A program made the position numbers and the translations under genes. From an uncultured Halomicronema sp. (GTDB lineage: Bacteria; Cyanobacteriota; Cyanobacteriia; Phormidesmidales; Phormidesmidaceae): a stretch of 24,000 bases of DNA. The first letter of the stretch is position 1. The number at the start of each line of letters is the position of its first letter. The DNA lies in the NCBI GenBank assembly GCA_937899725.1, contig CALCCA010000087.1:61979-85978 (forward strand), read 5' to 3'. This document shows positions 2,186 to 23,557 of the stretch, one piece after another. Under the pieces are notes generated by a model that ran no database searches, was not told where the DNA came from, and was given only the letters and a program-made list of their open reading frames with translations.

Positions 2186-3724
2186 TCAAATCGTGGTCGT
2201 GGGCGTTTGCCGCGAGGTGGGATCGCCCACCTTACTGAAGTAGCCCCACTCCACCTGTTCTTCGTTCAGATCTGGATCGATGCCCGAGAAGACATCTTGG
2301 AACAGGGCTCGCAGCCCATGCCAGATATGACCAAAGAACCACACCAGGGCAAAGCAGGCGTGGAAAAAGGCGAAGAAGCCCCGATTGCTGGTGCGGATGG
2401 CACCGTCGGAGTTGTACACAGTGCGGTCAAACTCAAAGGGTTCGCCCAACTGCGCCTTACGCGCATATTCTTTGACTTTTTGCGGCTCGGTAAAGGTCTG
2501 CCCGTCGAGCTGACCGCCGAAAAAGCTGACGGTTACGCCCGTTTTTTCAAACCCGTATTTGGCCTCCGATCGCCGGAACGGAATATCGGCCCGGACGATG
2601 CCTTCGCGATCGGTTAGTATCACTGGAAAGTTTTCAAAGAAGTTGGGCATGCGCCTGACCTCGAGCTCCCGACCTTCCTGATCTTTAAAGACCGGATGCC
2701 CGAGCCAGCCAGTCGCGAGGCCATCGCCATCGACCATGCGACCGACGCGGAACAGGCCGCCTTTGGCCGGGCTATTGCCGACATAGTCGTAGAAGGCGAG
2801 CTTTTGTGGAATAGCCGACCAGGCAGTCTCTAGGTTTTGACCGGCCGCTTCGGCAGCATGGACTCGGCGATCGATTTCTTCGTGAAAGTAGCCCTTATCC
2901 CACTGATAGCGGGTTGGCCCCCACAGCTCAATCGGGTTAGTCGCCGTGCCGTACCACATGGTGCCGGCGGCGATAAAGCCCGCGCCAAAAAAGACCGCGA
3001 GGCCGCTGGCCAGAGCCCCTTCGATATTCCCCATACGGAGGGCTTTGTAGAGGTATTCGGGCGGCCGCACCAGGATATGGAACAGGCCGCCAATAATGGC
3101 CACAATGCCTGCCGCAATATGATGGGCTACCACCCCGCCAGGATTTTGCGGATTAAAGCCAGCGGCTCCCCATTCGGGGGCAACGCCCTGCATATGGCCC
3201 GTCAGGCCATAGGGATCAGAGACCCACATGCCGGGGCCAAAGACCCCAGTTAAGTGGAAGGCCCCAAAACCGAAACACAGCAGCCCGGCCAGTAATAGAT
3301 GAATGCCGAAGACTTTAGGCAAGTCGATGATGGGCTCATCGGTTTTGGGATCAAAGAACGTCGCGACATCCCAGTAAACCCAGTGCCAGCAGGCCGCTAG
3401 GAATTCTAGGCCAGAGAACACAATGTGGGCGATCGCGACGGTTTCAAACGTCCAAAAGCCAGGGTCGGTAAAGGTTTCGCCGGTGACGCTCCAACCCTGC
3501 CAAGAGTTGGTGACGCCGAGGCGAGCGACAAAGGGCATCAAAAAGCACCCTTGTCGCCACATGGGATTGAGAATCGGGTCAGTGGGATCAAAGCGCGCTA
3601 GCTCAAAGAGCAGCATGGAGCCAGCGAATCCGGCGCAGAGGGCATTGTGCATGAGATGCACTGCCAGCAATCGGCCCGGATCGTTGAGCACGGAGGTGTG
3701 AACGCGGTACCAAGGCAGTCCCAT
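2186..3724 (-). CDS. psbB2: Photosystem II CP47 chlorophyll-binding protein paralog (PsbB)
   Basis: ORF 2186..3838 trimmed to the ATG at 3724. This gives the canonical CP47 N-terminus [20 protein letters not shown] and is preceded by AAGGAG. The product is 512 aa, with CP47-like blocks throughout (e.g. [13 protein letters not shown] near the C-terminus). Confidence 0.95.
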
Positions 3725-3804
3725 TAGGGTCTTCTCCTTGTATAGGGTGGACAGTCGGAAGGGGTTCGGAGGGGCGCGGCATTCGTGGGAATGCCGATCC
3801 GGAG

Positions 3805-3870
3805 GGGCGAGGCATTCTCGATTAAATATCTGGGTCAAAACCAGTCAGTTACCGCGAGAATGCCTCGCCC
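3805..3870 (-). repeat. 66-nt hairpin element, copy 1 (16-bp stem, 34-nt conserved loop), just downstream of the psbC2 stop
   Basis: GGGCGAGGCATTCTCG (3805-3820) pairs perfectly with CGAGAATGCCTCGCCC (3855-3870). The loop attaaatatctgggtcaaaaccagtcagttaccg is nearly identical to the loop of the copy at 7352-7417. Confidence 0.75.
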
Positions 3871-3898: not shown

Positions 3899-5347
3899 TT
3901 AGCGCAGGCTGGGGTCGATCGGTGGCATCGACAGCACCGGCTCGTTCTCGCGATCGAGGCCGGTTTCAAAGCCAGCAGCTGTGGCGCGGGCGCGACCCGC
4001 GTGCCAGAGGTGCCCGACGAGGAAAAAGAAGGCAAAGATAAAGTGAGCCGTGGCCAACCAAGTCCGGGGTGAAACAAAGTTAAAGGCATTTGTTTCAGTG
4101 GCTAGCCCCGCGACGGAGTTAATGGAACCCAGCGGCGCATGGGTCATGTACTCGGCAGCGCGGCGCAGCTGCCAGGGCTGAATATCGTGCTTGATTTTCT
4201 CGAGGTCGAGGCCGTTGGTGCCCCGGAGCGGCTCTAGCCAAGGGGCGCGAGCATCCCAAAAGCGCATCGTTTCACCGCCAAAGATGATTTCGCCGGTGGG
4301 CGATCGCTGCAGATATTTACCAAGCCCGGTCGGCCCCTGAGCTGAGGCCACATCAGCTCCCAACCCTTGATCGCGGGCTAAAAACACTAAAGATTGCGCC
4401 TGCGAAGCCTCAGGAATCGTGGGGCCATAGAACACGCTGGGATAAGCCGTATTGTTAAACCAAATAAAGGCGGTAGCAATAAAAGCTTGACCAGCGACGT
4501 TACCCAAACTCTGAGAGAGATAGGTCTCGCCCGTCCAGGGAAAGAGGTTATAGGTCCAGCGGAGGGGCGGCACGAGAATGTGCCAGATGCCACCAATGAC
4601 TAGCAGGCTGCCAATCCAAATGTGACCGCCAATGACATCCTCTAAGTTGTTGACGCTGACAATCCAACCGCTACCGCCGGTCGGCAGGCGCAGCAGATAC
4701 CCAAAAATGACGCGGGGGTCGAGAGTGGGGCTCGTAATCAGCCGCACGTCGCCGCCGCCCGGTGCCCAGGGGTCATACAGACCGCCCCAAAACATCGCTT
4801 TGCCGACAAACAGCAGGGCAAAGATCCCCAGCATGAGAATATGAAAGCCGAGAATTTGGGCCACTTTCGCCCGATCAGTCCAGTCAAACTCGAAAAAGCC
4901 TGAGAGCTTTTCGGGGCCTTGAATGGCGTGATAAATACCCCCCGCACCCAACACGGCAGAGCCAATCAGGTGAGCGACGCCAATGGCGAAAAAGGGAAAA
5001 ATGTCAGTGACGGCTCCCCCTTGACCGACCCCAAAGCCCAGGGTCGCAATGTGGGGCATGAGAATGCAGCCTTGCTCATACATCGGCTGCGACAGGTTGT
5101 AGTGGGAGACCTCAAACAGGAGCATGCCGCCGGCCCAAAAGGCAATCAGGCCCGCATGGGCGATATGCGCTCCGAGAAATCGTCCCGTCAACTCAGAAGT
5201 AATAAATCGGGCATTACCGGCCCACCAGGCAAAACCGCTGGACTCTTCGTCGTAGCCAGCGCTAGCGGGGGCAAAGATCGAGCCTTCCTCTACCAGGGGC
5301 TGACTCGACGTGGCTACGCTCGGTATCGTTTCGATGGGTATTTCCAT
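3899..5347 (-). CDS. psbC2: Photosystem II CP43 chlorophyll-binding protein paralog (PsbC)
   Basis: 482 aa. Contains [52 protein letters not shown] and C-terminal [11 protein letters not shown], all CP43 hallmarks. GGAGG lies 9 nt upstream of the ATG. Confidence 0.95.
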
Positions 5348-5437: not shown

Positions 5438-6496
5438 CTATTCACTAAAGCCCCGAGGTAGCACTTCTTCGGGGAAGACGAACTTCTTCGCAGGCTGATC
5501 CATCTCTGCCATCCAGGCCCGCACCCCTTCGTTGAGCAAGACATTCTTGGTATAGAAAGTCTCGTATTCGGGGTCTTGCGCGGCGCGGCGCTCCTGACTG
5601 ACAAAGTCATAGGCCCGCAAGTTGAACGACAAACCCACCATGCCAATGGCGCTCATCCACAGGCCAGTGACCGGCACAAACAGCATGAAGAAGTGCAGCC
5701 AGCGCTTGTTGGAAAAAGCGATGCCAAAAATCTGTGACCAAAAGCGGTTGGCGGTCACCATCGAATAGGTCTCTTCGGCCTGAGTGGTGGCGAAACCTTT
5801 GAACGTGTTTTTGCCCGTTGAGTCTTTGAACAGGGTGTTTTGGACGGTTGCCCCGTGAATGGCACAGAGCAGGGCTGCGCCTAACACCCCCGTTACCCCC
5901 ATCATGTGAAAGGGATTGAGCGTGTAGTTGTGAAACCCTTGGAAAAACAGTAAAAATCGGAAAATAGCGGTGACGCCAAAGCTAGGCGCAAAAAACCAGC
6001 TAGATTGCCCCAAGGGATACATCAGAAACGTGGCAACAAACACGGCGATGGGGGCCGAAAAGGCGATCGCGTTGTAAGGACGAATGCCGATCAGGCGAGC
6101 CACTTCGATTTGTCGCAGCATAAAGCCGATTAGGGCAAAGGCCCCGTGAAAGGCGGTGAAATTCCACAGGCCGCCGATTTGACACCAGCGCACAAAGTCA
6201 CCGTTGGCCTCCGGCCCCCATAGCAGTAAGAGCGAATGCCCCATGCTTTCGGCTGGGGTGGAGACGGCAACCGTCAAAAAGTTGCAGCCTTCGATATAAG
6301 AGCTGACTAAGCCATGGCTATACCAAGACGTCACAAAAGTGGTGCCGGTAAACCAGGCGCCGATCGCCATGTAAGCGCAAGGAAACAGCAGTAGCCCTGA
6401 CCAGCCCAGAAACACGAAGCGATCGCGCTTCAGCCAGTCATCGAGCTCAATTACCCAGCTCCGAGCTGGTTTTTGGGCTCCCATTGAAATTGTCAT
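5438..6496 (-). CDS. psbD3: Photosystem II D2 reaction-centre protein paralog (PsbD)
   Basis: 352 aa. Contains [61 protein letters not shown] and C-terminal FPEEVLPRG, colinear with D2 over its full length. Confidence 0.95.
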
Positions 6497-6575: not shown

Positions 6576-7109
6576 CTAAGCCACAGAATCGCTTTCGCCG
6601 GGGCCATCGTTCATGAAATAAGGCGTGCCGGGGAGCGCGAGCTCTTGAATGATTTCGTCAAAGTAAGGAATGATGGCCGCCGCATCAGTGGCGTCGAGTT
6701 GGGCGATCGCCTCCGCCTTCAGACAGCGCATGTACTGCAAGACGTTGGTTAGGGGAATGCCGACGTTGGTGTACAACTCCTTCATGCCCACGAGGCCAAT
6801 TTCTCGCAGGGGGCGATCGTCGCCCGCCAGCAGGCAATAGCTAATCAAGCGCACGTACCACCCCATATCGCGCTTAGCAGCGGCGGTTTTACGGCGATTG
6901 CCGCTATTGCTCGGCGTGCGGGGGCAAATGCGCCAAAATTGGCGAGTGCCTTGCTCCACGATGGTTTCGGCCTTTTGCTCTAGCGTTTTGGCGAGCCGTA
7001 CGCGCTCGGTGCCCGTTTTGCAAAAGGTGCGAATCGTGCGCAGCTCGCCGGGGGTGGGATAACGCTGCTCTTCGTCGGCGTTGAGAATGACCTGTTTCAC
7101 AATGCTCAT
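6576..7109 (-). CDS. apcD3: Allophycocyanin alpha-type subunit paralog (ApcD family) lacking the canonical bilin-binding Cys
   Basis: 177 aa. The globin-like phycobiliprotein fold motifs ICPRTPSNSG...KRDMGWYVRLISYCLLAGD are present. The position aligned with Cys81 (SCQRD / SCLRD in the two sister paralogs) reads AAKRD. The symbol comes from the known FaRLiP order apcA2-apcB2-apcD2-apcE2-apcD3. Confidence 0.82.
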   Translation of the reverse strand: MSIVKQVILNADEEQRYPTPGELRTIRTFCKTGTERVRLAKTLEQKAETIVEQGTRQFWRICPRTPSNSGNRRKTAAAKRDMGWYVRLISYCLLAGDDRPLREIGLVGMKELYTNVGIPLTNVLQYMRCLKAEAIAQLDATDAAAIIPYFDEIIQELALPGTPYFMNDGPGESDSVA

Positions 7110-7449: not shown

Positions 7450-9822
7450 TTAGGCGGGATTGGTCGCAGTTTCTGGCTCCGGCGTGGTCGCAGCCGTCTC
7501 GCCGTTGTTGACAGCGGTTGGCGGGTCGGGGGTGACGGCGGCGGGTGGGGGCGGTGGCGGCGCTTGAACGGCCACCGCAGTGGTTGCAGCGACCGGCTCT
7601 GGGCTGGCTGCTGCCGACCCGGCACTGTGGTCGCGCCCGGTGTGGTGATTCGCAGTGTGACCCTGAGCCATTGCAGTTTTGGCGTAGGTTTGCATCCATT
7701 CCCCCGCGATCGCTGGATTTTCTCGAGGTTTGAACCAGCCGCTAGGCCCTTGGGGCGATCGCTGAGCATAGCCCTGCGGCGTCAGGTAGCGCTCATAGGG
7801 CACGATCATTTCACCAAAGACCGCCAGGTATTCGGCACTGTCGATCAGCTCATCGACCAAGGCATAAAAGCCTTGGCGGGCACAGAGGTCGTAGTACCGG
7901 GCCATTTCTCGGCGATCGCGGGTCGGGCGCCCCAGCAAGCGCCGGTGAATATATTCGATCGCCTTGGTGATGTAGAGCGTCTCCCAAGCCAGCTGGCGGA
8001 AGGGGCGCGATTTGGCCAACTGCCGCACAAATTCGCGCAGGGTGATATTGCCTGCCTTTAGTTGGGTCTCAGCCGTTTGCTGCCGCTGGCCAGCCCACAC
8101 CGCTCGCCCAAACACCTGGCGATAGGTCGCCTGAATCACCGCCTCAGGGGAGTGGTGGGTCAGACTAAAGCTGGTTTGGCGGGGTGGCTCACCGCCCGCC
8201 TTGCCGTTCAGGCCATTCGGGGAAACGACCGCTTCCCACTGCAGCCGCTGCTGTTCCATCGCACCGGGGGCGCGGCCAAGGTGGGCGGCATGGCGTTCGA
8301 CCAAGCCGTTGCCCACGCCGTTGCTGATCAAAATCCGGCGGCTGTCTTCGCTAAAGTGAGCGGGCTGCGGCTGCGGATCGCGCGTTTCCTGCGGGAAGAT
8401 GGCTCCAAACTGAATCTCCAGCGGATCGTTGCCCGCCCCGTAGGGATGCTGATTGGGCAGCGGTTGCTGATAGCCGCCAAAGGTCGTGACAAACTGCGGC
8501 ACCTTGCGCACCGGCGCACTGTATTTCAACAGATCGAGTTGGGGACCCCAGTTGCGGCATTCCTGCGCCTCTCGCCCCAAACCGCGCAGATAGGGCACCG
8601 TTTCTTCGCCAAAGTAGTCGGCATATTCTGGCGAGTCGATAAAGGCATCCACCAAGGCCGACAACCCGTGATCAGAGATGACGTCAAAGTACGTCTGAAA
8701 CTCTTCTAGGCAGCTCAGCCCGCGACCGAGAAAGTGACGGCAGGCCAGCTCAATGCTGCGGCTGATGCTGTAGGGCTCATAGAAAAGTTGCCGATACAGG
8801 CGCGATTTACCCAACTGCCGAATGAACTCTTTCATCGTCCCCAGGTCGCTTTTGACCTGAGAGACGGGCGCTGCCAGCAGGGTGCCGTGGGTCTGGATGA
8901 CATCGCGCTCAAACACTTGGCGGCAGGCCGCTCGCACCACATCATCTTTTTCGATGTCGGGCAAATCGGCTTTCATCACCCAGTGGGGCTGCAGACTGGC
9001 ACTATCGCGGTAGCTTTGGGGTAAGGGCAACCCCGCGTGATGTTTAGAAATCCCCAGTCGCAACTGCGGATTGGGTTTCTCGACCTCATAGTCATCAATC
9101 AAGACATCAAAGTAGCGCCCCACTAGCGCGGCGGCTTGTCCCTTTTTGGGAAAATAGGTCAGCGCTTTCCACTGCATTTCTCGCAGGGCGACGATGGTGG
9201 CCAGGGTGACATCTTCTGGAATCACGCCCCGCAGGCCGCGCGTATTGACGCTAATGATGCTGGTATCCCCCGCCACGATCGCATAGGTGATGTAGCGCAA
9301 AAACCAGCTCAGGTCGCGCAGCGATCGCTTCATCCGCACCGGGCCGTAGCGGCCAATATCGATCGTGCGAAAGCGGCTGGGTGCCGCAGGTCTACCGCCT
9401 GCAATCAGCCCTTGAAACCATTCCAGCAGCGGATTGGACTCGTCGATTAGCCGCGGGCGATCGCGATTTTGGGTTCGCGCTTTTTGCTGCCGGGTCACCG
9501 CCGAGAGATAGTCTTCAGCAATGAAGTAATCAGAGCCCGGTAGTCCCAACGACTCCTCGGGCGGCTCTAGATAGGCCATCGAGTTGCCGCCCACAAAGAT
9601 GCGGTTGGCCCCCGCTGCCACGATGCGCTCAGCGTGCTGGGTCAGGGTTTGGGCAATCGCGAGTCGCTTCATCCCAGCGCCAAAAAAAGCTAAGAGTTCT
9701 TGGCCTTCACCGCGGCTTAAATAGCGATCGCGCTGCATCGCTTCAGTGATGACGGCGGTTGGCACCGTGTGATACTGCTGGGGATGAATCACTGGACTGC
9801 CCCCATTAATCCGATCAGTCAT
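7450..9822 (-). CDS. apcE2: Phycobilisome core-membrane linker paralog (ApcE) with two REP linker domains and a Cys-free bilin domain
   Basis: ORF 7450..9906 trimmed to the ATG at 9822 (MTDRINGGSPVIHPQQYHTVP, the ApcE-like N-terminus). The product is 790 aa. The phycobiliprotein-like domain contains RYGPVRMKRSLRDLSWFLRYITYAIVAGD. Two linker repeats are present: ...ACRQVFERD...EYADYFGEETVPYLR and ...ATYRQVFGRA...EYLAVFGEMIVPYERY. Confidence 0.9.
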   Translation of the reverse strand: MTDRINGGSPVIHPQQYHTVPTAVITEAMQRDRYLSRGEGQELLAFFGAGMKRLAIAQTLTQHAERIVAAGANRIFVGGNSMAYLEPPEESLGLPGSDYFIAEDYLSAVTRQQKARTQNRDRPRLIDESNPLLEWFQGLIAGGRPAAPSRFRTIDIGRYGPVRMKRSLRDLSWFLRYITYAIVAGDTSIISVNTRGLRGVIPEDVTLATIVALREMQWKALTYFPKKGQAAALVGRYFDVLIDDYEVEKPNPQLRLGISKHHAGLPLPQSYRDSASLQPHWVMKADLPDIEKDDVVRAACRQVFERDVIQTHGTLLAAPVSQVKSDLGTMKEFIRQLGKSRLYRQLFYEPYSISRSIELACRHFLGRGLSCLEEFQTYFDVISDHGLSALVDAFIDSPEYADYFGEETVPYLRGLGREAQECRNWGPQLDLLKYSAPVRKVPQFVTTFGGYQQPLPNQHPYGAGNDPLEIQFGAIFPQETRDPQPQPAHFSEDSRRILISNGVGNGLVERHAAHLGRAPGAMEQQRLQWEAVVSPNGLNGKAGGEPPRQTSFSLTHHSPEAVIQATYRQVFGRAVWAGQRQQTAETQLKAGNITLREFVRQLAKSRPFRQLAWETLYITKAIEYIHRRLLGRPTRDRREMARYYDLCARQGFYALVDELIDSAEYLAVFGEMIVPYERYLTPQGYAQRSPQGPSGWFKPRENPAIAGEWMQTYAKTAMAQGHTANHHTGRDHSAGSAAASPEPVAATTAVAVQAPPPPPPAAVTPDPPTAVNNGETAATTPEPETATNPA

Positions 9823-9934
9823 GGTGTGTTCTAAACTCCGAATTAAAAATGTTGCTGAGAGAAACCAGATTTCTGATGAGGCCCGTTGAGTCGCGGGCTT
9901 GATCAAAAATCCTGACGGTGAACCCTGACTCGCC

Positions 9935-10414
9935 TTAGCGTCTGAGCCCTTCCATCAAGTAGTCAAAATAGGGCGCGACTTCTGCCGCATCATCAATGCT
10001 CAACAGGCTGAGGGCCACTTCTTTGAGACAGCCCATGCATTCCGCCACATTACTGAGAGGAATTTCGAGAGAGGTGTACATCTCCTTGACCCCGCGCACC
10101 CCACTGGCCTGCAGCGGGTCAATGTCGCCCACCACGACGGCATAGGAAATCAGGCGCAGAAACCAGCCCTGATCACGCAGGCACGAAGCCTGAAACCGGG
10201 GGTTATCGCTATTGCTGGGAGTCAGGGGACAGCGTTGCCAAAATCGCTGACTGCCTTGTTCCACAATCAGTTGGACGTTGCTAGTCAACACGGAGGCAAT
10301 GCGGAGGCGCTGTTGTCCGGCGTCAAAGAAATGACTGATCGCCTCCAGTTCGCCCCGACTGAGATATCGCGCTTCGCGATCGGCGTTGGCGATCGCTTGG
10401 GTAATAATGCTCAT
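9935..10414 (-). CDS. apcD2: Allophycocyanin alpha-type subunit paralog (ApcD family, far-red type)
   Basis: 159 aa. Contains MSIITQAIANADREARYLSRGELEAI..., RCPLTPSNSD...ASCLRDQGWFLRLISYAVVVGD and a C-terminal APYFDYL. The symbol is assigned from gene order. Confidence 0.82.
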   Translation of the reverse strand: MSIITQAIANADREARYLSRGELEAISHFFDAGQQRLRIASVLTSNVQLIVEQGSQRFWQRCPLTPSNSDNPRFQASCLRDQGWFLRLISYAVVVGDIDPLQASGVRGVKEMYTSLEIPLSNVAECMGCLKEVALSLLSIDDAAEVAPYFDYLMEGLRR

Positions 10415-10797: not shown

Positions 10798-11283
10798 CTA
10801 GCTCAACCCTGAACAGATATGGTCGAAATAGACGCCCATCTCTTGACCGGCCTCAGCTCCCAGCATTTCACTGGCGACCTCTTTCATGGACTGCACCGCC
10901 CGCACCGTCGCCCCAACGGGAACGCCCAAGGAGTTATAGGTTTCCTTCAAACCGTTGAGCACGCGCTCATTCAAAATGGACGGATCGCCCGCCAGCATGG
11001 CGTAGGTGGCATAGCGCAAGAAATAGTCCATATCGCGAATGCAGGCCGCATAGCGACGGCAGGTGTACATGTTGCCGCCCGGAGCTGTGATATCGGTATA
11101 CAGCAAGGCTTTTGCAACTGTTTTGGTGACGATTTTGGAGGCATTAGCGCTCACCGACATGGCGGCGCGGGCTCGTAGATCGCCACTGCGAAAATAGTTC
11201 TGCAGGTTATCTAACGAGCTATCGTCCAAATATTTGCCCTGCATGTCAGAAGTATTGATCAGGGTCGTAATAGCGTCTTGCAT
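10798..11283 (-). CDS. apcB2: Allophycocyanin beta subunit paralog (ApcB)
   Basis: ORF 10798..11379 trimmed to the ATG at 11283, preceded by AAGGAG. This gives [20 protein letters not shown]..., the canonical ApcB start. The product is 161 aa and contains [37 protein letters not shown] and a C-terminal [10 protein letters not shown]. Confidence 0.93.
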
Positions 11284-11489
11284 TAAAGATCTCCTTAGGT
11301 ATTCAGAAAAAGTTGTAAGAGAGCGGCAAAAGTCAAAATGTGCAGGGTAAAAGGTCAGCGGGGCAAGGTCAGAGCCCATCAGTTAGAGCCTTGAACTTTG
11401 AACCCGCAGCCCTGAACCCATTCCCCAACTTGAAAGCAGCAGTGAGTTCTCGATAAAAGGGTGGAAGTTCAACGCCAAGCTGAGAACGC

Positions 11490-11966
11490 CTACGACAAAG
11501 AATGAATAATCAAATCGAAGTAGGGCGCGACCTCTTGGGCATCGTCGTCACTCATGACGGCCATCGCTTCCTCTTTGAGGCAGCGCATGCATTCGGCAAT
11601 ATTGCGAATGGGAATTTCTAAGTTGTTGTACATTTCCTTAATGCCGACGGTGCCGATTTCTTCTAGGGGCCGCTCACTGCCCGCCAGAATGGAATAAGCA
11701 ATCAGGCGCACATACCAGCCTTGATCACGCTGGCAGGAATTAGTCTTGCGATCGACGCCACTATTACTCGGGGTATTAGGACAACGCTCCCAAAACTTTT
11801 TGCTGCCGTTTTGCACGATGCGCTGTTCATTTTCGGCGAGCGCTTTAGCAATCCGAATCCGCTGTTCGCCGGTTTTTGCGAAGTCTTGAAAAATTCTCAG
11901 CTCTTTAGGGGCAGGATAACGGGCCTCACTATCGGCACTCAGAATCAGTTCCGTGACTAAGCTCAT
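11490..11966 (-). CDS. apcA2: Allophycocyanin alpha-type subunit paralog (far-red type), first gene of the minus-strand operon
   Basis: 158 aa with AGGAG upstream. Contains MSLVTELILSADSEARYPAPKEL..., RCPNTPSNSG...NSCQRDQGWYVRLIAYSILAG and APYFDLI. The symbol is by position upstream of apcB2; I cannot exclude an ApcD5-type identity without phylogeny. Confidence 0.75.
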   Translation of the reverse strand: MSLVTELILSADSEARYPAPKELRIFQDFAKTGEQRIRIAKALAENEQRIVQNGSKKFWERCPNTPSNSGVDRKTNSCQRDQGWYVRLIAYSILAGSERPLEEIGTVGIKEMYNNLEIPIRNIAECMRCLKEEAMAVMSDDDAQEVAPYFDLIIHSLS

Positions 11967-12891
11967 GACTAGATTTCTCCTAATTTAACGCTGCATGAAA
12001 GATCCATATCAAGCGATGGCTTGAATTATCTTGCTCCTAGAATTTGATATCTTTTCTTGAGTGAATTTTTTTGAAAATTTCATTTGAGAAATTTTAGTCA
12101 TCAAATTGTTATTCCAAGCCAGCCAACTTCTGATGAGAGGGTGCTTTGAGGGTTTGATACTTCTTGCTGAAGACGGCTTCAACATCAGCCAAATCTATTT
12201 CACAACCGCCGCTCAGAGAGTTGACGACTGATTCAAGACTGGACTCATAGAAGATGAACTTCACTCAAAGGGTCATCAAGAAAATTCAGCAGAGATCACC
12301 AGCATCTCGACTCAAAGTTCTTGACGTCTCTTCATTGATGAATACAGATAAGATTCCACTTAATCTAGAATCAGCTGCCTTAGCCTCTTTGAAAAGACTT
12401 CATCTTTTACTAGGTTTGAAAGGAGAATAAGCAAAAAAAATGAAGAACTTATGAACAGATTAAAATCGCTTAAAGAAACTTTTCGATAGGCCGCAGCGAA
12501 GGGGGCCTTCACCAGTTCTTTAGATCTTTCTGGTTTGATGCAAGTCACGCACTCGTTGGTATGGACCGAATTTGAGGCGTTTAAGTGATCGGTGTCAAGG
12601 CCATGCTCCTGGCTGTTTTATGTAAATTCAGCCAGCTTGTGAATGCCTAAATTGATGCCGAGAAAGAATATTCGGCGGGCAGTTTTTGGGTGACTGTGGC
12701 CGGATTAATCTGTTGGCTCTCCCTCAATTTATGGGCAACTCAGCCGTTAATCATTGAGGCCTTTGCCCGGCAAAGGCTGAGCTCAGGTTTTCAGAGCTTG
12801 ACTGCCTGGTTTTCACCCCTAATCCAGCAGGGGCAATCGGCTGCTGCTGAACTGCATGCCAATTACATGACATCTGAATTTGAGTAAAGAG

Positions 12892-13208: not shown

Positions 13209-14057
13209 ATGAATTTGCATAAAGACATGAAATACCGTTCGTTAATGGCCCTCTTTTTAGCGACTTTTTTGGGCTTCCTGACGGCTTGTAGCAGCAGTCC
13301 CACCGCCAACAACGGCTCCTTGAGTTATGACGACATTCGAGGCAGTGGGCTGGCCAACAACTGTCCGGAGCTGTCGGAAGCAAGCCTTGATTCGATCGCG
13401 ATCGCCACCGACCAGTCTTATCAGCTCAAAGAACTGTGTTTAGAACCCAAAACCTTTTTGGTGAAGCGATCGCCCCGCATCAAACGGCAGGATAGTCAGT
13501 TTGAACTCACCAAACCCCTAACCCGAGAAAGTTTCACCCTTGATCAGGTGAGTGGCTCGCTCAAGGCTGCGCCCAACGGCATGCTGACCTTTACTGAGCA
13601 AGGGGGATTTGATTTTCAACCGGTGACGGTGCAGCTCCCCGATGGCGAACGGGTGCCGCTGTTATTCACCATTAAGGGATTAGTCGCGCAAAATCAAGAT
13701 TCTTCTGGTCGTCTCGGCCCCTCTAGTCGGTTGGCTGGTACATTTGATGTGCCACCTTATCGCACTTCGAGCTTTATTGACCCCAAAGGGCGCGGTCTGG
13801 CGATGGGCTACGATGTGGCCGCCGGTTTGCCGGTGAGTGCTGATAGCGAAGAATTTGCTCGCCCGAATACCAAGGTCTTTGATATTGGCCAAGGGTCCAT
13901 TTCTCTGCAGGTCAACCGAGTCAACCGAGCAACGGGCGAAATTGCCGGTTTGTTTGAGAGCGCCCAACCTTCGGACACTGACTTTGGCGCGAAAGAAGCC
14001 ATGGGCGTCAAAATCAAAGGACGCTTTTATGGCCGGATTGAACCGGAGACCATTTAG
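13209..14057 (+). CDS. psbO2: Photosystem II manganese-stabilising protein paralog (PsbO)
   Basis: Colinear with PsbO: LSYDDIRGSGLANNCPEL, ELCLEPKTFLVK, FDFQPVTVQLPDGERVPLLFTIKGLVA, FDVPPYRTSSFIDPKGRGLAMGYD, TGEIAGLFES and IKGRFYGRIEP. The start is uncertain. The ATG at 13209 lies 11 nt after AGGAG, and the ATG at 13227 (MKYRSLMALF...) matches known PsbO N-termini. The track start at 13185 is less likely. Confidence 0.9.
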   Translation: MNLHKDMKYRSLMALFLATFLGFLTACSSSPTANNGSLSYDDIRGSGLANNCPELSEASLDSIAIATDQSYQLKELCLEPKTFLVKRSPRIKRQDSQFELTKPLTRESFTLDQVSGSLKAAPNGMLTFTEQGGFDFQPVTVQLPDGERVPLLFTIKGLVAQNQDSSGRLGPSSRLAGTFDVPPYRTSSFIDPKGRGLAMGYDVAAGLPVSADSEEFARPNTKVFDIGQGSISLQVNRVNRATGEIAGLFESAQPSDTDFGAKEAMGVKIKGRFYGRIEPETI

Positions 14058-14408: not shown

Positions 14409-14543
14409 ATGACCAATCTCAACAATCAGCCCGAGGTAGCCTATCCGATTTTCACCATTCGCTGGCTAGCGGTACATACACTGGCGATTCCTACGGTGTT
14501 CTTTTTGGGGGCGATCGCCGCGATGCAGTTCATTCAACGCTAA
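14409..14543 (+). CDS. psbF2: Cytochrome b559 beta subunit paralog (PsbF), with no adjacent psbE
   Basis: ORF 14211..14543 trimmed to the ATG at 14409, 8 nt after AGGAG. The 44-aa product [44 protein letters not shown] is near-identical to canonical PsbF, including the heme-ligand His. Confidence 0.9.
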
Positions 14544-14706: not shown

Positions 14707-15219
14707 TTATCGTTTGGGTTTTCCCCCAGCCCACTGGTCACCGACGATTCTCGGCTGCACTAAAATATGGCCCGCGATCGCGGTCAAATCAGATTGAGTC
14801 AGGTCACGCATTTTAGGAAAGAGATCCGTCCGCTGCGTCGATGGATGACTTTCTAAAATAGGCTGCAACCCATCGTAGGTTGTGGGGTTTTCCAAATAAT
14901 TAACGATGCTTTCTATCGTATTGCGAGGCGGGGTCGCAACCGCCAATGTTTCAGACGATAAATCAACGCTGGGATTCGTTTTTGTGACGCCGTCTAAATG
15001 ACATTGAGCACAGCTACCATTAAATTTACGCTGCCCGGTCAGCAGTTGTTTGGTCGTCAGGGTCATCTGATCGCCTGATGCATTTAAGGGTAGCGTTCGA
15101 GTCGCTTTATCAATTTCAGCCGCGTTAGCATTAGGCACCCAGGCGATTGCCGAAATCAACAATGCACAGGTTGGCAAAGCAACATATCTAAGTAATTTTC
15201 TTTTGAGATTAAAAAACAT
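14707..15219 (-). CDS. psbV2: Cytochrome c-550 (PsbV) paralog
   Basis: 170 aa. The signal peptide ends ...VPNANA/AE. The heme motif is CAQCH. Also present are LDGVTKTNPSVDL, LAVATPPRN, NPTTYDG, the distal-ligand His region ILESHPS, LFPKMRDLTQSDLTAIAGHIL and a GDQWAGGK tail, all colinear with PsbV. Confidence 0.88.
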   Translation of the reverse strand: MFFNLKRKLLRYVALPTCALLISAIAWVPNANAAEIDKATRTLPLNASGDQMTLTTKQLLTGQRKFNGSCAQCHLDGVTKTNPSVDLSSETLAVATPPRNTIESIVNYLENPTTYDGLQPILESHPSTQRTDLFPKMRDLTQSDLTAIAGHILVQPRIVGDQWAGGKPKR

Positions 15220-16080
15220 TAATTTCTAGCTCCAAAAATTTAGCTAATATCTTAAAAGTATCACAGCTTTTATTTGAGATTCATTAAAATAGTATTTCTT
15301 GAAAAGAATCTAGAAGAAATCGTTTTAGCAAATCAATAACTGGATTGTTGGATTTTTTGATTGACTATTTTCTGTTCAAATAAAAGGCTGCCATGGTCGA
15401 TGTTGTTCAGATTCTCCTTTGGCTGACCTGTCAAAGTCTCGCCAGCTTAATGACGGCATGACGGTATGAAGTGGACTGGTAATGAGGGCAGCTGCGTTTT
15501 TGAGCTGACCGACTGGCAGGAAGTCTCCTCGGTATAAGGACTCTCCAAAAAACCGATCAAGGATCTGCTTGAGCGCGATCGCCCGCTGCTGCAATCAGGT
15601 CTGCAGGCCTCTCAAAACCCCTCTAAATCAAAGGTCTATGGTCTGAGCGCTTGACCACAGGCAGCGAGATTTTGAGGGCTGAATTGCGCCGGTAAACGTG
15701 AGGTCATGGACGACTTAGCCCGGTGTGAAGCATGAGAGAAAGGGGTCGAGCTGCCGAGTGAATTGCTTGAAACGCTCATCGGTCAATGACCCTGGCTGTA
15801 ACTTTTTCTGAAGTGCTGATTCATCTTCACTAGTTTTTTATTTTTTTTGCTTACCTTGCTTTACTAATCGCGATCAGTCGATTCACCAATTCATTCTCTG
15901 CCTTCCCGATGATCTTGAGTAGCTTCAAGAAAAGTATGGCCGTCCTCTCCTCATAGAGGTTGGTCTAGGGAACTTACCTGCTGACTTTAAAGCGGGTGAG
16001 TTGAGAATATAAAACTTGCAGTTTTCTGTTTGAAGTGGCCCAAACTAGTCACGGCAAACAGCTCTGTTTTACTGCAAATT

Positions 16081-16119
16081 CCATTAATGTCTGTTTGCTT
16101 GAGAAGCAGGCATTAATGG
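16081..16119 (+). promoter_or_regulatory. Imperfect hairpin in the putative chlF leader, about 90 nt upstream of the ATG
   Basis: CCATTAATGtCTGttTGCTTgagAAGCAGGCATTAATGG. The outer arms CCATTAATG/CATTAATGG and the inner arms TGCTT/AAGCA are complementary. Confidence 0.35.
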
Positions 16120-16208
16120 ATAATTTCTGGCTTGGATTTGATGCCAGTAGAGAGCCAGTTAATAACACTTTTTGGCATCGAATAATTTATGCAAACAGGA
16201 GCTTTAAG

Positions 16209-17462
16209 ATGACACAGTTTGGTAGAGCGATCGCCCTCGATCGTCCTGACCAAATCGCAGGCGTCTCACCCTCTAGGAAACCCATAAGTGACGTGACTAT
16301 TGCACCTCCCATTCATTCTGACGATGCCAAAATTGCGCGCCCCATTAATGTGTGGGAGCGCTTTTGCCGCTGGGTTACCAGCACTGACAATCGCATTTAT
16401 GTCGGCTGGTTTGGCATCTTGATGATTCCGACCTTATCCACTGCGGCCATCGTCTTTTTGCTGGCCTTTGTGGCGGCCCCCCCGGTGGATATTGACGGCA
16501 CTGGCGGGCTCATCGCGGGGTCGTTATTCAGCGGCAATAATCTGATTACCGCTGCCGTCGTGCCCACTTCACCCGCTGTGGGGCTGCACTTTTATCCCCT
16601 TTGGGAAGCCGCTTCGATGCAGGAGTGGCTGGTCAATGGCGGCCCCTATCAACTCATCGTGCTGCACTTCTTGATTGGCATCATTGCCTATCAAGATCGG
16701 GAATGGGAACTCAGTTACCGACTGGGAATGCGGCCCTGGGTGTCGCTCGCCTTTACCGCCCCAGTGGCGGCCGCCGTGTCGGTGTTGCTGATTTACCCCA
16801 TTGGCCAAGGCGGCTTTGCTGCGGGCATGCCCTTGGGCATTTCGGGCACGTTTACGTTCATGCTGCAGTTCCAGGCTGATCACAACATCCTGGCTAATCC
16901 GTTTCACCAAATCGGCGTGATTGGGGTCTTTGGCGGGTCGTTTCTCTGTGCCGTGCATGGCTCATTGGTTACGTCGGCGCTGATTCGCCATCGCCCTACC
17001 CCGGCGGCGGCCCAGCGCCGCTGGCATGACAACCCCCACGGGGCCTATAGCCTCAGGCATCTGCAAATCAATCAACAAAAATTACTCTGGCGCGGGGCGA
17101 GTTTTAAGTCAGCGCGATCGCTGCATTTTTTCCTGGCGGCCTTTCCGGTGGCGGGCATCTGGTCGGCGGCGATGGGCATTGATATGGCCGCCTTCGGGTT
17201 TGATCAGTTTGCGAGTCAAGCGGCCGGGGGTGGCCTCCAAAAGGCGGTGGTGCCGACTTGGGCCGACATTGTGACCCAGGCCAATCTGGGCATGCATGTG
17301 CTGTCAGAGACTGAGCAGTCCACCTTTCCCATCTTTTTGGGCGAAGCCGCCACGCCTGAGGCTGCCCGTCTGGGGCTGGCGGTAGACCCCGATGCCCCGG
17401 CGCGGGCGCTCACGGGCCCACAGCTGTCCGGCGCGATCGCCCCAGCCATTCCCACTGTCTGA
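16209..17462 (+). CDS. chlF: Super-rogue D1 paralog with chlorophyll f synthase hallmarks (ChlF / PsbA4)
   Basis: D1 fold is clear ([58 protein letters not shown]). The OEC ligand positions are changed: D170->A (GQGGFAAG), E189->D (QADHN), H332->S, D342->F, A344->G ([20 protein letters not shown]). [10 protein letters not shown] carries Gln-Asp where D1 has Met127-Gly128. The QB/DE-loop is unrecognisable. Start is set at ATG 16209 (AGGAG 8 nt upstream), not the GTG at 16035. Confidence 0.88.
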
Positions 17463-17567: not shown

Positions 17568-19925
17568 ATGACTACCAGTCCTCCGAAGCAGAGGCAACCG
17601 GTGCGGGTCACCGTTGATGAAAACCCCGTGTCCACCTCTTTTGAGAAGTGGGCCAAACCGGGACATTTCGACCGCACCCTGGCCAGAGGCCCCAAAACCA
17701 CCACCTGGATTTGGGATCTGCATGCCGATGCCCATGATTTTGATACCCACACGGGTGATCTCGAAGATATTTCTCGCAAAATCTTCTCAGCTCACTTTGG
17801 GCATCTGGCCATTATCTTCATCTGGCTCAGCGGCATGTATTTTCATGGCGCTCGGTTTTCTAACTTTTCCGCTTGGATGGCCGATCCGATTAACCTCAAG
17901 CCCAGTGCTCAAGTCGTCTGGCCCCTCGTCGGCCAAGAGATTCTGAACGCTGATCTGGGGGGCGGCTTCCACGGCATTCAAATCACCTCGGGCCTCTTCC
18001 AAATGTGGCGTGGCCAGGGCTTTACCCATGAGTTTCAGCTCTTTTGGACGGCGATGGGGGCGCTGGTGATGGCTGCTGTCATGCTGTTTGCGGGCTGGTT
18101 TCACTACCATGTGCGGGCGCCCAAGCTGGAATGGTTCCGCAATTGGGAATCGATGATGAACCACCACCTGGCCGGCCTACTCGGTCTGGGCAGCTTAGGC
18201 TGGGCGGGGCATTTGATTCACGTGGCAGTGCCGACCAATCGGTTGATGGACGCGGGGGTCGCCCCGAACGATGTGCCGTTGCCCCATGAGTTCATTCTCA
18301 ATAAGAGCTTGATGATGGAGCTGTTCCCCAGCTTTGCCCAAGGCGTCAAGCCGTTTTTCACGTTTAACTGGTCGGCCTACACCGATTTCCTCACCTTTAA
18401 GGGTGGGCTCAATCCGGTGACGGGCGGCCTGTGGATGACGGATATTGCGCACCATCACGTGGCGATCGCCGTGCTCTTTATCGTGGCCGGCCACTTCTAT
18501 CGCACTAACTGGGGCATTGGCCACACTTTCCGAGAGCTGCTGGATGATGCCAGAACGCCCAAACTGTTTCCTCTGTTTAGTTTTCTGGGGCCAGTGGGGC
18601 ACCGGGGGCTCGAAAAAATCTTTGAGACCTCTTGGCACGCCAATTTGGCGATTCACCTGGTGCAGTTTGGCACCGCCAGCCTGCTGGTGGCCCATCACAT
18701 GTATGCGATGCCGCCCTACCCGTATCTGGCCACTGACTATGCCACGGTGACCTCGCTCTTTACCCACCATGTGTGGATTGCGGGCTTCTGTATTGTGGGC
18801 GGGGCGGCCCATGCGGCCATCTTCTTAGTGCGGGACTACAATCCCGCCGACCACGTCAATAATGTGTTGGATCGGGTGCTGCGTCACCGCGACACCATTA
18901 TTTCTCACCTGGTGTGGGTCTGCCAGTTCCTCGGTTTCCACAGTTTCGCCATGTACTGTCACAACGACACCATGCGCGCCTTTGGTCGCCCGCAGGACAT
19001 GTTCTCCGATACGGGGATTCAGCTGCAGCCGGTGTTTGCCCAGTGGGTGCAACACATCCACACGATGGCGATCAACAATCCAGCGGCGCAGGCCGCTCAG
19101 CCCTTGGGCGATGTGTTTGGCGGTCTCCGCAATATTGATTTGGTCGGGCTGGGCACCACCGTGCCACAGGTGGCGCAACCGATCAGCCATGCCTTTGGCG
19201 GCGGGGTCGTTGCCGTTGGCGGCAAGGTAGCGATGATGCCCATCCATCTGGGCACGGCAGATTTCTTAATTCACCACATTCACGCCTTCACCATTCACGT
19301 AACGGTGCTGGTGCTGCTGAAGGGTGTGCTGTTTGCCCGCAGTTCGCGACTGATTCCCGATAAGGGTGAGCTGGGCTTCCGGTTCCCTTGCGATGGCCCC
19401 GGTCGCGGCGGCACCTGCCAGGTCTCTGCTTGGGACCACGTCTTTCTCGGGCTGTTTTGGATGTACAACTGCCTGTCGATTGTGATTTTCCACTTCTTTT
19501 GGAAGATGCAGTCGGATGTGTGGGGTACGGTGAATGCCGACGGCACGATATCCCATATCACGGCGGGCAATTTTGCCCAATCATCCATTACCAACAATGG
19601 CTGGCTGCGCGACTTTCTCTGGGCGCAGGCGTCGCAGGTGATTGGCTCCTATGGGTCGGCGCTATCGGCCTACGGCCTAATTTTCCTGGCGGGGCACTTC
19701 GTCTTTGGTTTCAGTTTGATGTTCTTGTTCAGCGGCCGCGGCTACTGGCAAGAGCTGATTGAGTCCATCGTGTGGGCGCATAACAAACTGAAAATCACCA
19801 CGGCGATTCAACCCCGTGCGCTGAGCATCACGCAAGGACGCGCGGTGGGGGCGGCCCATTATCTATTGGGCGGCATTGTCACCACCTGGGCCTTTTTCTT
19901 AGCCCGCATGGCGGCGCTGGGGTAG
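17568..19925 (+). CDS. psaA2: Photosystem I P700 apoprotein A1 paralog (PsaA)
   Basis: 785 aa with TAGGAGG upstream. Contains [35 protein letters not shown], the FX loop [19 protein letters not shown] and a C-terminal [18 protein letters not shown]. Confidence 0.95.
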
Positions 19926-20055: not shown

Positions 20056-22287
20056 ATGGCGACAAAATTTCCGAAATTTAGTCAGGATTTGCAGCGAGAC
20101 CCGACCACTCGTCGAGTCTTTTATGCGATCGCCACGGCTCATGATTTTGAAAGCCACGATGGGATGACGGAGGAGAATCTGTATCAGCGGATTTTTGCCT
20201 CCCACTTTGGTCATCTCGCCATTATCTTTTTATGGATATCGGGCATTTTGTTTCATGTGGCCTGGCAAGGCAACTTCGAACAGTGGATTCAAGATCCGCT
20301 GAACACTAAACCGATCGCCCATGCCATTTGGGATGCCCAGTTTGGCCCCGCCGCGATCGACGCTTACACCCAAGCTGGCGCTCGCAACCCGGTCGATATT
20401 TGCTACTCCGGGGTGTATCACTGGTGGTACACCATCGGCATGCGCACCAACACCGACTTGTTTGTCGGCTCGCTATTTTTGCTGCTGCTGGCAGGCGTCA
20501 TGCTCTATGCCGGGTGGCTACACCTACAGCCCCGGTTTCGGCCCAGCTTGGCCTGGTTTAAGAATGCCGAATCGCGGCTCAACCATCACCTGGCCGGTCT
20601 GTTTGGCGTCAGTTCCCTGGCTTGGACGGGTCACTTAGTGCATGTGGCCATTCCCGAATCACGGGGACAGCATGTCGGGTGGGATAACTTCCTCTCGCTG
20701 CCGCCGCATCCGGCGGGACTAGGGCCATTCTTCACTGGCAACTGGGGCGTCTATGCCCAAAATCCCGATACGGCTGAGCATGTGTTTAACACCAGCCAGG
20801 GTGCGGGCACGGCCATGCTCACCTTTTTGGGGGGCTTCCATCCCCAAACGGAATCGCTGTGGCTGACGGATATGGCCCATCACCATCTGGCGATCGCGGT
20901 TCTCTTTATCTTTGCGGGCCACATGTACCGCACCAACTTTGGCATCGGTCACAGTATTAAAGAAATGACCGAATCCCTGCAGGGGCCAGGGTGGAAAGGG
21001 TTCTTCATCGCGCCGGATACTGGGCGCGGTCACCAGGGCATTTACGACACCTACAACAACTCCCTGCACTTTCAGTTGGGCTGGCATTTAGCCGCGTTGG
21101 GGGTGGTCTGCTCCCTGGTGGCGCAGCACATGTATGCCATGCCGCCCTATGCCTTTATGGCCCGCGATTACACCACCATGTCGGCGCTTTATACTCATCA
21201 CCAGTACATTGCGGGCTTCCTGATGGTGGGGGCCTTTGCCCACGGCGCGATCTTCCTAGTTCGTGATTATGACCCCCAGGCGAATGTCGATAATGTGCTG
21301 GCCCGCGTGTTGGATCACAAGGAAGCGATCATCTCGCACCTGAGCTGGGTGTCGCTCTTCCTCGGCTTTCATACCCTCGGCCTCTACGTGCACAACGACT
21401 GTGAGGTGGCCTTTGGCGCGGCTGAGAAACAGATCTTGGTAGAGCCGGTGTTTGCCCAATGGATTCAAGCTTTCCATGGCAAAGCGCTCTACGGCATCAG
21501 TTCGCTGCTATCCAACCCGGAGAGTGTGGCGACGACGGCCTGGCCGAATTACGGCAACGTTTGGTTACCGGGTTGGCTAGAGGGTATCAATAGCGGCGCG
21601 AACTCGCTGTTTTTGACCATCGGACCGGGAGACTTTTTGGTGCACCACGCGATCGCCCTCGGGCTCCACGTCACCACCCTCGTTTTGGTGAAAGGGGCGC
21701 TGGATGCGCGGGGGTCGAAGCTGATGCCCGATAAAAAAGACTTCGGCTACAGCTTCCCCTGTGATGGGCCGGGTCGCGGCGGCACCTGCGACATCTCGGC
21801 TTGGGATTCCGTTTATCTCGGCATGTTCTGGATGTTGAACTCCCTCGGGTGGATTACCTTCTACTGGCACTGGAAACATCTGTCAGTTTGGAGCGGTAAT
21901 GTCGCTCAGTTCAACGAAAGTTCGACCTACCTGATGGGCTGGTTCCGCGACTATCTGTGGCTGAATTCGGCTCAGCTGATCAACGGCTACAGCCCGACGG
22001 GCACAAACAATCTGGCCGTCTGGGCCTGGATGTTCCTCTTTGGTCACTTGGTCTGGGCGATCAGCTTCATGTTCTTGATTACCTGGCGGGGCTACTGGCA
22101 AGAACTGATCGAAACGCTGATGTGGGCTCACGAAAATACGCCGCTGTCCTTTGGCTATCCCAAAGACAAGCCCGTGGCCCTCTCTATTGTGCAGGCCCGC
22201 CTCGTGGGGCTCACCCATTTCACGGTCGGCTATATTGCCACCTACGGCGCTTTCCTGATTGCGTCTACGGCTAGCCGCTTTCCGTGA
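20056..22287 (+). CDS. psaB2: Photosystem I P700 apoprotein A2 paralog (PsaB)
   Basis: 743 aa. Contains [34 protein letters not shown], the FX loop [18 protein letters not shown] and a C-terminal [18 protein letters not shown]. Confidence 0.95.
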
Positions 22288-22481: not shown

Positions 22482-23051
22482 ATGACTGATACCTCGCAAC
22501 CGGCTTGGGCTGATGCCTACAGTCAAGAAGATTTTATTCAGCCCTATCAGGGCAATCCCTGGTTAGGCAATTTGGCCACTCCGATCAACAGCTCGGGCTG
22601 GGTCAAAGCCTACATCAACAACCTGCCAGCTTACCGTCCGGGTCTTACCCCGTTTTTACGCGGTCTCGAAATTGGCATGGCCCACGGCTATTTTTTGGTC
22701 GGGCCAGAAGTGGTAGTGGGGCCGCTGCGCGAGACGGCCCATGGGGCTAATCTCAGCGGTCTAATTACCGCCGTTTACATCACCGTCTCGGCCTGCCTGG
22801 GCATTTCGATCTTTGCCCTTGCCACCTTTCAAGGGGCTCCCCGAGGCGCTTACAACCTGCATTCCCAAGACCGGCTGCGGCCGCTCCGGCAAAAAGAAGA
22901 CTGGTTTCAGCTCTGCGGCGGCATCTTACTCGGTTCGATGGGCGGGGCCATCTTTGCCTATGTACTGTTGGAAAACTTCAGTGATATCGACGCCAGCTTA
23001 CGGGGCGCGGTGAATGTGAGTCAGGCGATCGTTAATGGAATTTTGGGGTGA
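22482..23051 (+). CDS. psaL2: Photosystem I subunit XI paralog (PsaL)
   Basis: 189 aa. Contains PYQGNPWLGNLATPINSSGWVKAYINNLPAYRPGLTPFLRGLEIGMAHGYFLVGP and a C-terminal ...AYVLLENF, colinear with PsaL. Confidence 0.9.
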   Translation: MTDTSQPAWADAYSQEDFIQPYQGNPWLGNLATPINSSGWVKAYINNLPAYRPGLTPFLRGLEIGMAHGYFLVGPEVVVGPLRETAHGANLSGLITAVYITVSACLGISIFALATFQGAPRGAYNLHSQDRLRPLRQKEDWFQLCGGILLGSMGGAIFAYVLLENFSDIDASLRGAVNVSQAIVNGILG

Positions 23052-23323: not shown

Positions 23324-23557
23324 ATGGCTGATATGACTCAACTGACCGGCGCCTATGCTGCGTCATGGTTGCCCTGGCTGATGATTCCGCTAATTTTTTA
23401 TATTCTGCCCTTCCCTGTATTTGCGATCGTTTTTCTTTGGATTGAACGCGAAGGCAACGGTGAGGCGGCGATGGGACAAGATGCGACTAGCTCATCATCC
23501 GGATTGTTAGCGGCCACACCCGGTGACATGGGCGCCGACCCCACCTCATCTGCCTAA
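23324..23557 (+). CDS. psaI2: Photosystem I subunit VIII paralog (PsaI) with a long C-terminal extension
   Basis: AAGGAG lies 7 nt upstream. GAYAASWLPWLMIPLIFYILPFPVFAIVFLWIEREG matches the PsaI core (..YAAS.LPW...P.......LF.YIE). The ORF is 77 aa, whereas I remember PsaI as about 38-40 aa. Confidence 0.8.
   Translation: MADMTQLTGAYAASWLPWLMIPLIFYILPFPVFAIVFLWIEREGNGEAAMGQDATSSSSGLLAATPGDMGADPTSSA

Follow-up and report, generated by a model that had tools for sequence, protein, structure and literature searches.

A probable chlorophyll f synthase gene, chlF, in a far-red light photoacclimation cluster of an uncultured Halomicronema sp.

Introduction

What does a D1 paralogue do once the ligands for the Mn4CaO5 cluster have been replaced? 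This question is raised by an open reading frame (ORF) at positions 16209-17462 of a 24,000-nucleotide stretch of contig CALCCA010000087.1, from an uncultured Halomicronema sp.; that whole 24-kb stretch is referred to here as the window. An earlier note, made from the letters alone, had named the ORF a candidate chlorophyll f synthase. The signature residues, the Group 1 residues, the placement in a clade defined by Gln-Asp (QD) at D1 positions 127-128, and the surrounding genes for far-red light photoacclimation (FaRLiP) all support that proposal, and from them the gene very probably encodes ChlF (PsbA4, a Group 1 'super-rogue' D1), the light-dependent chlorophyll f synthase of FaRLiP.

Gene model of chlF

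16209..17462, plus strand: chlF (psbA4) coding sequence, for a probable Group 1 'super-rogue' D1 paralogue
16197..16201, plus strand: Shine-Dalgarno sequence AGGAG, 7 nt 5' of the chlF ATG

The ORF encodes 417 amino acids followed by a stop codon, within a stop-to-stop frame that runs from 16035 to 17462 on the plus strand in the ORF listing. The ribosome-binding block AGGAGCTTTAAGATG also occurs in L001 and, with one mismatch, in L003 (L-numbers denote the genome loci used for comparison, 79 in all), and translation from the ATG at 16209 gives the same N-terminal head that stands at the start of most homologues. With AGGAG ahead of the ATG and a head common to most homologues, 16209-17462 is the right gene model. 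A public record with identical sequence (GCA_050043345.1, contig JBHJIQ010000013.1) carries the same model, so that ribosome-binding site, homologue starts and public annotation agree that the ORF given in the earlier note is real. That annotation names the product only "photosystem II q(b) protein". A GTG start at 16035 was rejected: it has no support among the homologues, and 'RSFK', read in frame ahead of the Met, is the translated Shine-Dalgarno block.

Homology to D1 and residue map

The window protein matched Pfam Photo_RC (PF00124) at E=4.4e-77 and, over residues 45-387, the D1 chains of the Protein Data Bank (PDB) at E about 1e-131. Its score against TIGR01151 psbA was 461 bits, under the 596-bit cut-off for standard PsbA. 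Its description as a D1 paralogue is borne out by these three results. Residues were numbered from the HMMER alignment to PDB D1, in which query numbers exceed those of D1 by 35 as far as the DE loop and by 34 beyond it. Two regions of the coding sequence are referred to below:

16692..16697, plus strand: codons of the QD motif, Gln162-Asp163, at D1 positions 127-128 (Met-Gly in standard D1)
16989..17096, plus strand: DE-loop and QB-side region (D1 about 226-262), with H252Q and with Y246, S264 and F265 kept

The residue map confirmed every ligand previously read as kept (Tyr161, His190, His198, His215 and His272), every water-oxidation ligand read as lost (D170A, E189D, H332S, D342F and A344G), and the Gln-Asp pair in place of Met127-Gly128 (M127Q, G128D). 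E130, Y246, S264, F265 and E333 are also kept, and H337S, H252Q and N298D are further changes. In D1, H198 belongs to P680, Y161 and H190 to TyrZ, and H215 and H272 to the non-haem iron; E130 lies near pheophytin, and S264, F265 and Y246 on the QB side. The residues for charge separation and for the quinone side (H198, Y161, H190, E130, H215, H272, S264 and F265) are all present. Five of the seven Mn4CaO5 ligands are replaced, and the CtpA processing site is gone, G344 being followed by a 39-residue tail. Judged by these residues, the window protein is a D1-fold reaction-centre subunit that should still accommodate P680, TyrZ, pheophytin and the non-haem iron, along with a modified quinone pocket, and is predicted to be unable to hold the Mn4CaO5 cluster or to undergo CtpA processing.

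The DE loop had been described as unrelated sequence, and D1 residues from about 226 to 262 indeed have no alignable counterpart in the window protein, whose loop is one residue shorter. As its length and sequence vary among all ChlF homologues, this divergence is a family trait and nothing special to the window gene. An AlphaFold2 model built on an 85-sequence alignment contained the five expected long helices and unstructured tails, with a mean predicted local distance difference test score (pLDDT) of 61.7 and a predicted template modelling score (pTM) of 0.41; at such scores the model is too weak to go beyond the sequence match to solved D1.

ChlF signatures and assignment to Group 1

Eight residues have been described as ChlF-specific in a 2023 comparison of 18 ChlF sequences, namely L117, Q127, D128, S144, L145, F147, Q252 and S285 (PMC10535343). 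All eight, including Gln127-Asp128, are present in the window protein. The importance that the earlier note had assigned to the QD motif in chlorophyll f synthesis is supported by the passage of PMC10535343 that cites Trinugroho 2020, where D1 with MG replaced by QD is stated to make chlorophyll f in vivo.

To this published set we added an alignment of 219 D1-family sequences (120 database hits, 90 ORFs from the 79 genome loci and a few outliers), which QD as against MG or LG separated cleanly. QD was always accompanied by S144, L or M at 145, F147, Q or R at 252, S, C or T at 285, and altered Mn-ligand positions, with D170 replaced in all QD sequences but one. Every full-length, unbroken sequence without QD had the complete ligand set.

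Group 1 D1, the form belonging to FaRLiP clusters, is described as having lost D170, E189, H332, D342 and A344, while residue 333 stays Glu or Asp (PMC4408414). In the same work, Group 2 ('rogue') D1 keeps H332, has lost E333 to Ala, Ser or Gly, combines H252 with one inserted residue at G253, retains N298 and carries Asp or Glu at 170; Group 1 is the opposite at each of these positions (Cardona et al. 2015, PMC4408414). With A170, Q252 without the insertion, D298, S332 and E333, the window protein is of Group 1 type at every one of these discriminators.

Phylogeny and selection

Two neighbour-joining trees were computed from about 346 well-aligned columns, rooted on the window's own D2 and bootstrapped 200 times; D1 of Groups 0, 2 and 3 was absent from both. 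The QD clade was monophyletic in 157/200 and 140/200 bootstraps. Within it, the window protein was joined in 200/200 with a relative of 98 % identity from 'Cyanobacteria bacterium J06626_4', and lay inside a 25-member clade together with the ChlFs of Halomicronema hongdechloris and Synechococcus PCC 7335 (189/200 and 183/200). The ChlFs of Chroococcidiopsis (PCC 7203 type, AFY86562.1) and Fischerella thermalis JSC-11 (EHC19225.1) were found elsewhere within the QD clade. From the positions of these two pairs, verified enzymes therefore fall both in the subclade of the window protein and outside it. The earlier note had proposed an alignment to verified ChlFs, and this placed the window protein inside the QD clade with the experimentally studied enzymes. 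In the multiple alignment, the protein was 72 % identical to H. hongdechloris ChlF, 63 % to that of PCC 7335 (59 % by BLASTP), and 59-60 % to the 7203-type and Fischerella ChlFs. Identity with standard D1, taken from the tree analysis, was 52-58 %.

Group 2 sequences were sought in paper supplements, in the D1-classification literature, among the 90 D1-family ORFs of the 79 loci and in a second homologue search, and none was obtained from these sources. A representative-library search, in which the D1 family was collapsed at 50 % identity and consisted mostly of fragments and chimeras, held no sequences of Groups 0, 2 or 3. Only the published diagnostic residues therefore serve to exclude Group 2.

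Against the 98 % relative, the ratio of nonsynonymous to synonymous substitution rates (dN/dS) of chlF was 0.11 overall, 0.08 in the core and 0.27 in the tail. The gene is under purifying selection and is no decaying copy.

A separate observation concerns synonymous divergence from the relative's locus L082, which was threefold higher in psaA2 (17568-19925; dS 0.39) than in the adjacent chlF (0.12). This contrast hints at a recent recombination or sweep over chlF and its leader, or at constraint at the nucleotide level.

The FaRLiP cluster around chlF

The whole window is made up of FaRLiP genes, and together with the downstream contig it holds nearly all of a cluster. Genes for photosystem II (PSII), allophycocyanin-type (apc) genes and genes for photosystem I (PSI) were located as follows:

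1659-1880, minus strand: psbH2
2186-3838, minus strand: psbB2
3899-5347, minus strand: psbC2
5438-6496, minus strand: psbD3
6576-7109, minus strand: apc gene
7450-9906, minus strand: apcE2, with the FaRLiP marker VIPEDV at residue 228
9935-10414, minus strand: apc gene
10798-11379, minus strand: apcB-like gene
11490-11966, minus strand: apc gene
13209-14057, plus strand: psbO2
14409-14543, plus strand: psbF2
14707-15219, minus strand: psbV2
17568-19925, plus strand: psaA2
20056-22287, plus strand: psaB2
22482-23051, plus strand: psaL2
23324-23557, plus strand: psaI2

Past psaI2, the source contig continues with psaF2, psaJ2, a gene for an RfpB-like double-receiver/winged-helix regulator and one for an RfpA-like phytochrome kinase. 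In the window and the 10 kb downstream of chlF on the source contig, chlF is the only D1-family gene. 'Cyanobacteria bacterium J06638_28', Nodosilinea sp. LEGE 07298 and Leptolyngbya cf. ectocarpi LEGE 11479 have the same gene order around their chlF orthologues. An arrangement chlF-psa-rfp, in which psbO2 is optional, has been assigned to Nodosilineales (2024 preprint, bioRxiv 10.1101/2024.05.15.594131), and the gene order of the window matches this type.

Some further features of the cluster were recorded. Between the apc genes and chlF stand psbO2, psbF2 and psbV2, optional FaRLiP genes that have been reported mainly for the earliest-branching lineage; psbF2 is present without an accompanying psbE2. 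At the cluster edge, directly beyond psbH2, a gene at 1028-1411 on the minus strand encodes a DUF1257 protein of 127 aa. A full-length match to the Rfam family IsrR was found at 4696-4882 on the plus strand, antisense to psbC2, with 116.9 bits against a gathering score of 52. IsrR is the antisense RNA of isiA, which encodes a homologue of CP43. The match most likely reflects coding homology between psbC2 and isiA rather than a real antisense RNA.

Weighing of alternative explanations

Loss of some Mn ligands and the E189D change are common to the window protein and to Group 2 'rogue' or 'sentinel' D1, which is expressed in the dark, at low oxygen or during nitrogen fixation and yields PSII inactive in water oxidation and no chlorophyll f. 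The earlier note had named a placement with rogue or sentinel D1 as the outcome that would speak against a ChlF; on the published diagnostic residues the answer was negative, the trees themselves holding no Group 2 sequences. S332, E333, Q252 without an insertion, D298 and A170 are five diagnostic positions opposite to Group 2 (PMC4408414), and the QD motif and the FaRLiP context also argue against that group, so that membership in it is very improbable. Still more improbable, and excluded by the map of ligands, is a far-red D1 (PsbA3) or another water-oxidising standard D1. A FaRLiP cluster normally holds psbA3 as well, which gives this explanation its ground, but the window protein lacks D170, E189, H332, D342 and A344 and scores below the TIGR01151 cut-off, and the far-red D1 genes that adjoin chlF in L005, L011 and L013 retain every ligand and group outside the QD clade.

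A gene of Group 1 by descent might also have lost or changed its function, as a decaying copy or as a structural or regulatory reaction-centre subunit that does not synthesise chlorophyll f. The divergent, faster-evolving C-terminal lumenal region and tail (tail dN/dS 0.27) would fit such a fate. On the other side, the ORF is intact with a core dN/dS of 0.08, the signature and cofactor residues are all retained, synteny is kept in four related genomes with a conserved regulatory motif, and no second D1-family gene occurs in the window or the 10 kb downstream of chlF, which together span almost the whole of a FaRLiP cluster that would be useless without chlorophyll f. We consider this explanation unlikely, if less remote than the other two. 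Several points nevertheless weigh against a chlorophyll f synthase. T322 (Asp reported), T334 (Arg) and E335 (Pro, His or Gln), together with the long Ala/Pro-rich tail, are unlike the eight Group 1 sequences known in 2015; the tree is distance-based, contains no sequences of Groups 0, 2 or 3, and supports the QD clade as a whole only moderately (70-79 %). The relatives with activity data are at most 72 % identical to the window protein, and the source is a metagenome-type assembly. Taken with these points, ChlF remains by far the most probable identity of the window protein.

Proposed mechanism

[quoted passage not shown] Isolated ChlF has been described in two forms, a homodimer and a monomeric 'super-rogue' complex that resembles PSII with ChlF in the position of D1, and the literature debates between the two (PMC11946780; PMC12096807). 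From the literature on studied orthologues, we infer the following steps for the window gene. Under far-red light, RfpA/B/C would switch on the cluster, with chlF transcribed probably together with psaA2B2. The protein would then either form a homodimer or take the position of D1 in the monomeric 'super-rogue' complex. Light-driven charge separation would there produce a strong oxidant, with no Mn cluster to reduce it, and this oxidant would turn the C2 methyl of chlorophyll(ide) a into the formyl group of chlorophyll f. The electrons may leave by way of plastoquinone through the modified, DCMU-sensitive quinone site, and the QD pair would mark the probable substrate or product pocket. Chlorophyll f could then be inserted into the far-red forms of PSI and PSII for which the neighbouring genes code.

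N-terminal head and C-terminal tail

16209..16313, plus strand: N-terminal extension, residues 1-35 relative to D1, a conserved head followed by a variable linker
17343..17459, plus strand: C-terminal tail, 39 residues past the D1 A344 position, Ala/Pro-rich, lineage-specific and of low model confidence

Both ends of the protein extend beyond D1, by less than had been thought. The N-terminal extension, put at about 45 aa in the earlier note, was overstated and measures 35 residues, query residue 45 being D1 residue 10. The C-terminal extension is Ala/Pro-rich as described (11 Ala and 6 Pro of 39), but comprises 39 residues after the A344 position and not about 60; it is some 23 residues longer than the 16-residue tail of pre-D1.

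The head proper (residues 1-15, window 16209-16253) is present in 74/117 QD-clade proteins and is followed by a linker that is free to differ in both length and sequence; the ChlFs of Nostocales and Pleurocapsales have a different head. Over the first 45 codons, no change separates chlF from the 98 % relative, against an expectation of about 4 synonymous ones. Removal of the N-terminal extension of the PCC 7203 enzyme, which is unrelated to that of the window protein, has been published to raise chlorophyll f 14-fold. The head might be a regulatory module (a degron or an assembly gate) that limits ChlF accumulation, perhaps with the Ala/Pro lumenal tail as part of the same module; the 14-fold rise fits this idea, which we regard as possible but rather doubtful. 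The conserved head, the lineage-specific tail and the leader hairpins described below are peripheral points that are mildly new.

Upstream motif and leader hairpins

15826..15857, plus strand: T-rich FaRLiP intergenic motif TTCACTAGTTTTTTATTTTTTTTGCTTACCTT, 383 nt upstream of the chlF ATG
12424..12455, minus strand: second copy of the T-rich motif, upstream of the minus-strand apc/PSII operon
16080..16120, plus strand: stem-loop of 17 bp, located 3' of the T-rich motif and ending 89 nt upstream of the chlF ATG

T-rich conserved intergenic motifs have been described upstream of FaRLiP operons, that of chlF among them, at distances of up to about 440 bp (bioRxiv 10.1101/2024.05.15.594131). The copies in the window were found by k-mer vote and fuzzy pattern search, a global MAFFT alignment of the upstream regions having been uninformative; none would be expected by chance. 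Eight other loci, which represent several orders, have a homologous motif upstream of chlF (L001, L002, L003, L004, L006, L007, L009 and L010), and in comparison with the 98 % relative the motif block is 100 % conserved while the flanking DNA diverges. The start of the motif TTCAYNRGTTYTTYATNTTTTTTGCTTAYYYT resembles two TTCA-type half-sites about 11 bp apart, a spacing that resembles what is expected for a winged-helix response regulator such as RfpB, for which it is a candidate site. In this half-site part, the chlF copy is more degenerate (TTCAC...TTTTAT) than the apc copy.

The 142-nt chlF leader folds better than shuffled sequences (z = -3.6), and in the 98 % relative (L082/L083) the stem-loop at 16080-16120 is conserved. 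This stem-loop may serve transcriptional or translational control, or be a terminator-like structure. FaRLiP clusters outside Nodosilineales have another hairpin of roughly 40 nt, with a GGAAAC or AGAAAC loop, about 55 nt upstream of chlF. Copies of this hairpin were located at:

L004: 9915-9976
L005: 9745-9806, 8469-8529 and 2488-2552 (minus strand)
L006: 2807-2868
L007: 9869-9930
L009: 9825-9886
L010: 9849-9911
L011: 396-457
L013: 9876-9937 and 8406-8467

Compensatory changes were observed in 5/13 of its pairs. A covariance model made from the chlF copies also matched upstream of psbA3 and psaA2, and had no match in the window, L001-L003 or L082.

Significance and comparison with known proteins

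ChlF has been known since 2012-2020, together with the QD motif, the absence of a Mn site and the location in FaRLiP clusters, and the Nodosilineales-type layout has also been described, so the gene itself adds little. The practical value lies in annotation: the checked residue set gives a clean rule by which ChlFs with wrong or generic names can be relabelled. Most relatives of the window protein are named only 'photosystem II q(b) protein'. The RefSeq orthologues of Fischerella thermalis, Fischerella sp. PCC 9605 and Synechococcus PCC 7335 are named 'photosystem I reaction center subunit IX', which appears to be an annotation error. The gene also makes it likely that the source organism, a Leptolyngbya-like cyanobacterium of marine or mat origin, is a far-red phototroph that produces chlorophyll f. 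As a divergent ChlF, with 59-72 % identity to the studied enzymes, the protein is an option for the engineering of chlorophyll f synthesis.

One related sequence departs from the pattern. In L081 (3441-4625; European Nucleotide Archive ERZ4903328, NODE_13655, coverage 2.7x), protein P0002 equals the window ChlF to about residue 311 and then continues as a standard D1 C-terminus (WPVIGIWFTALGIS...HERNAHNFPLDLA); the gene downstream is likewise not psaA2. Assembly across the conserved HFFLAA region probably produced a chimera here, the alternative being a real chlF/psbA recombinant.

We compared the window protein with the known members of the D1 family. Group 2 'rogue/sentinel' D1 is likewise a D1 paralogue with an impaired Mn site and E189D, but its discriminators are not those of the window protein. 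Standard D1 (Thermosynechococcus PsbA1/PsbA3) shares the fold, the five-helix topology and the P680, TyrZ, pheophytin and non-haem-iron residues, and differs in its full set of Mn4CaO5 ligands, MG or LG at 127-128, H252, CtpA cleavage after A344 and the absence of an N-terminal extension.

Among ChlFs, those of the Chroococcidiopsis thermalis PCC 7203 type and of Fischerella thermalis PCC 7521/JSC-11 are active when expressed heterologously (PMC11946780). They resemble the window protein in identity (59-60 %), membership in the QD clade and loss of the Mn site, but their N-terminal extension is shorter (22 aa in 7203), unrelated and lacks the MTQFGRA head, they have hardly any C-terminal tail, and their cluster architecture is different. 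The closest named relative, at 72 %, is the ChlF of H. hongdechloris, modelled in PMC10535343, in which A170, D189, Q252, S264 and the eight signature residues are identical; its database entry begins at the D1-like core (MHPWERF...) with no N-terminal extension annotated, and its tail is shorter. The ChlF of Synechococcus sp. PCC 7335 (UniProt B4WP19, 'Light-dependent chlorophyll f synthase'), whose deletion abolishes chlorophyll f, differs from the window protein in the length and sequence of the DE loop, in N322 and S170 (T322 and A170 in the window protein) and in an unrelated tail. It is alike in its 59 % full-length identity by BLASTP (66 % over trimmed core columns), in the same QD and signature residues, in a long N-terminal extension with a related head MIQTGFGRTSALEGFEQ and a long C-terminal tail, and in belonging to the same subclade (183/200).

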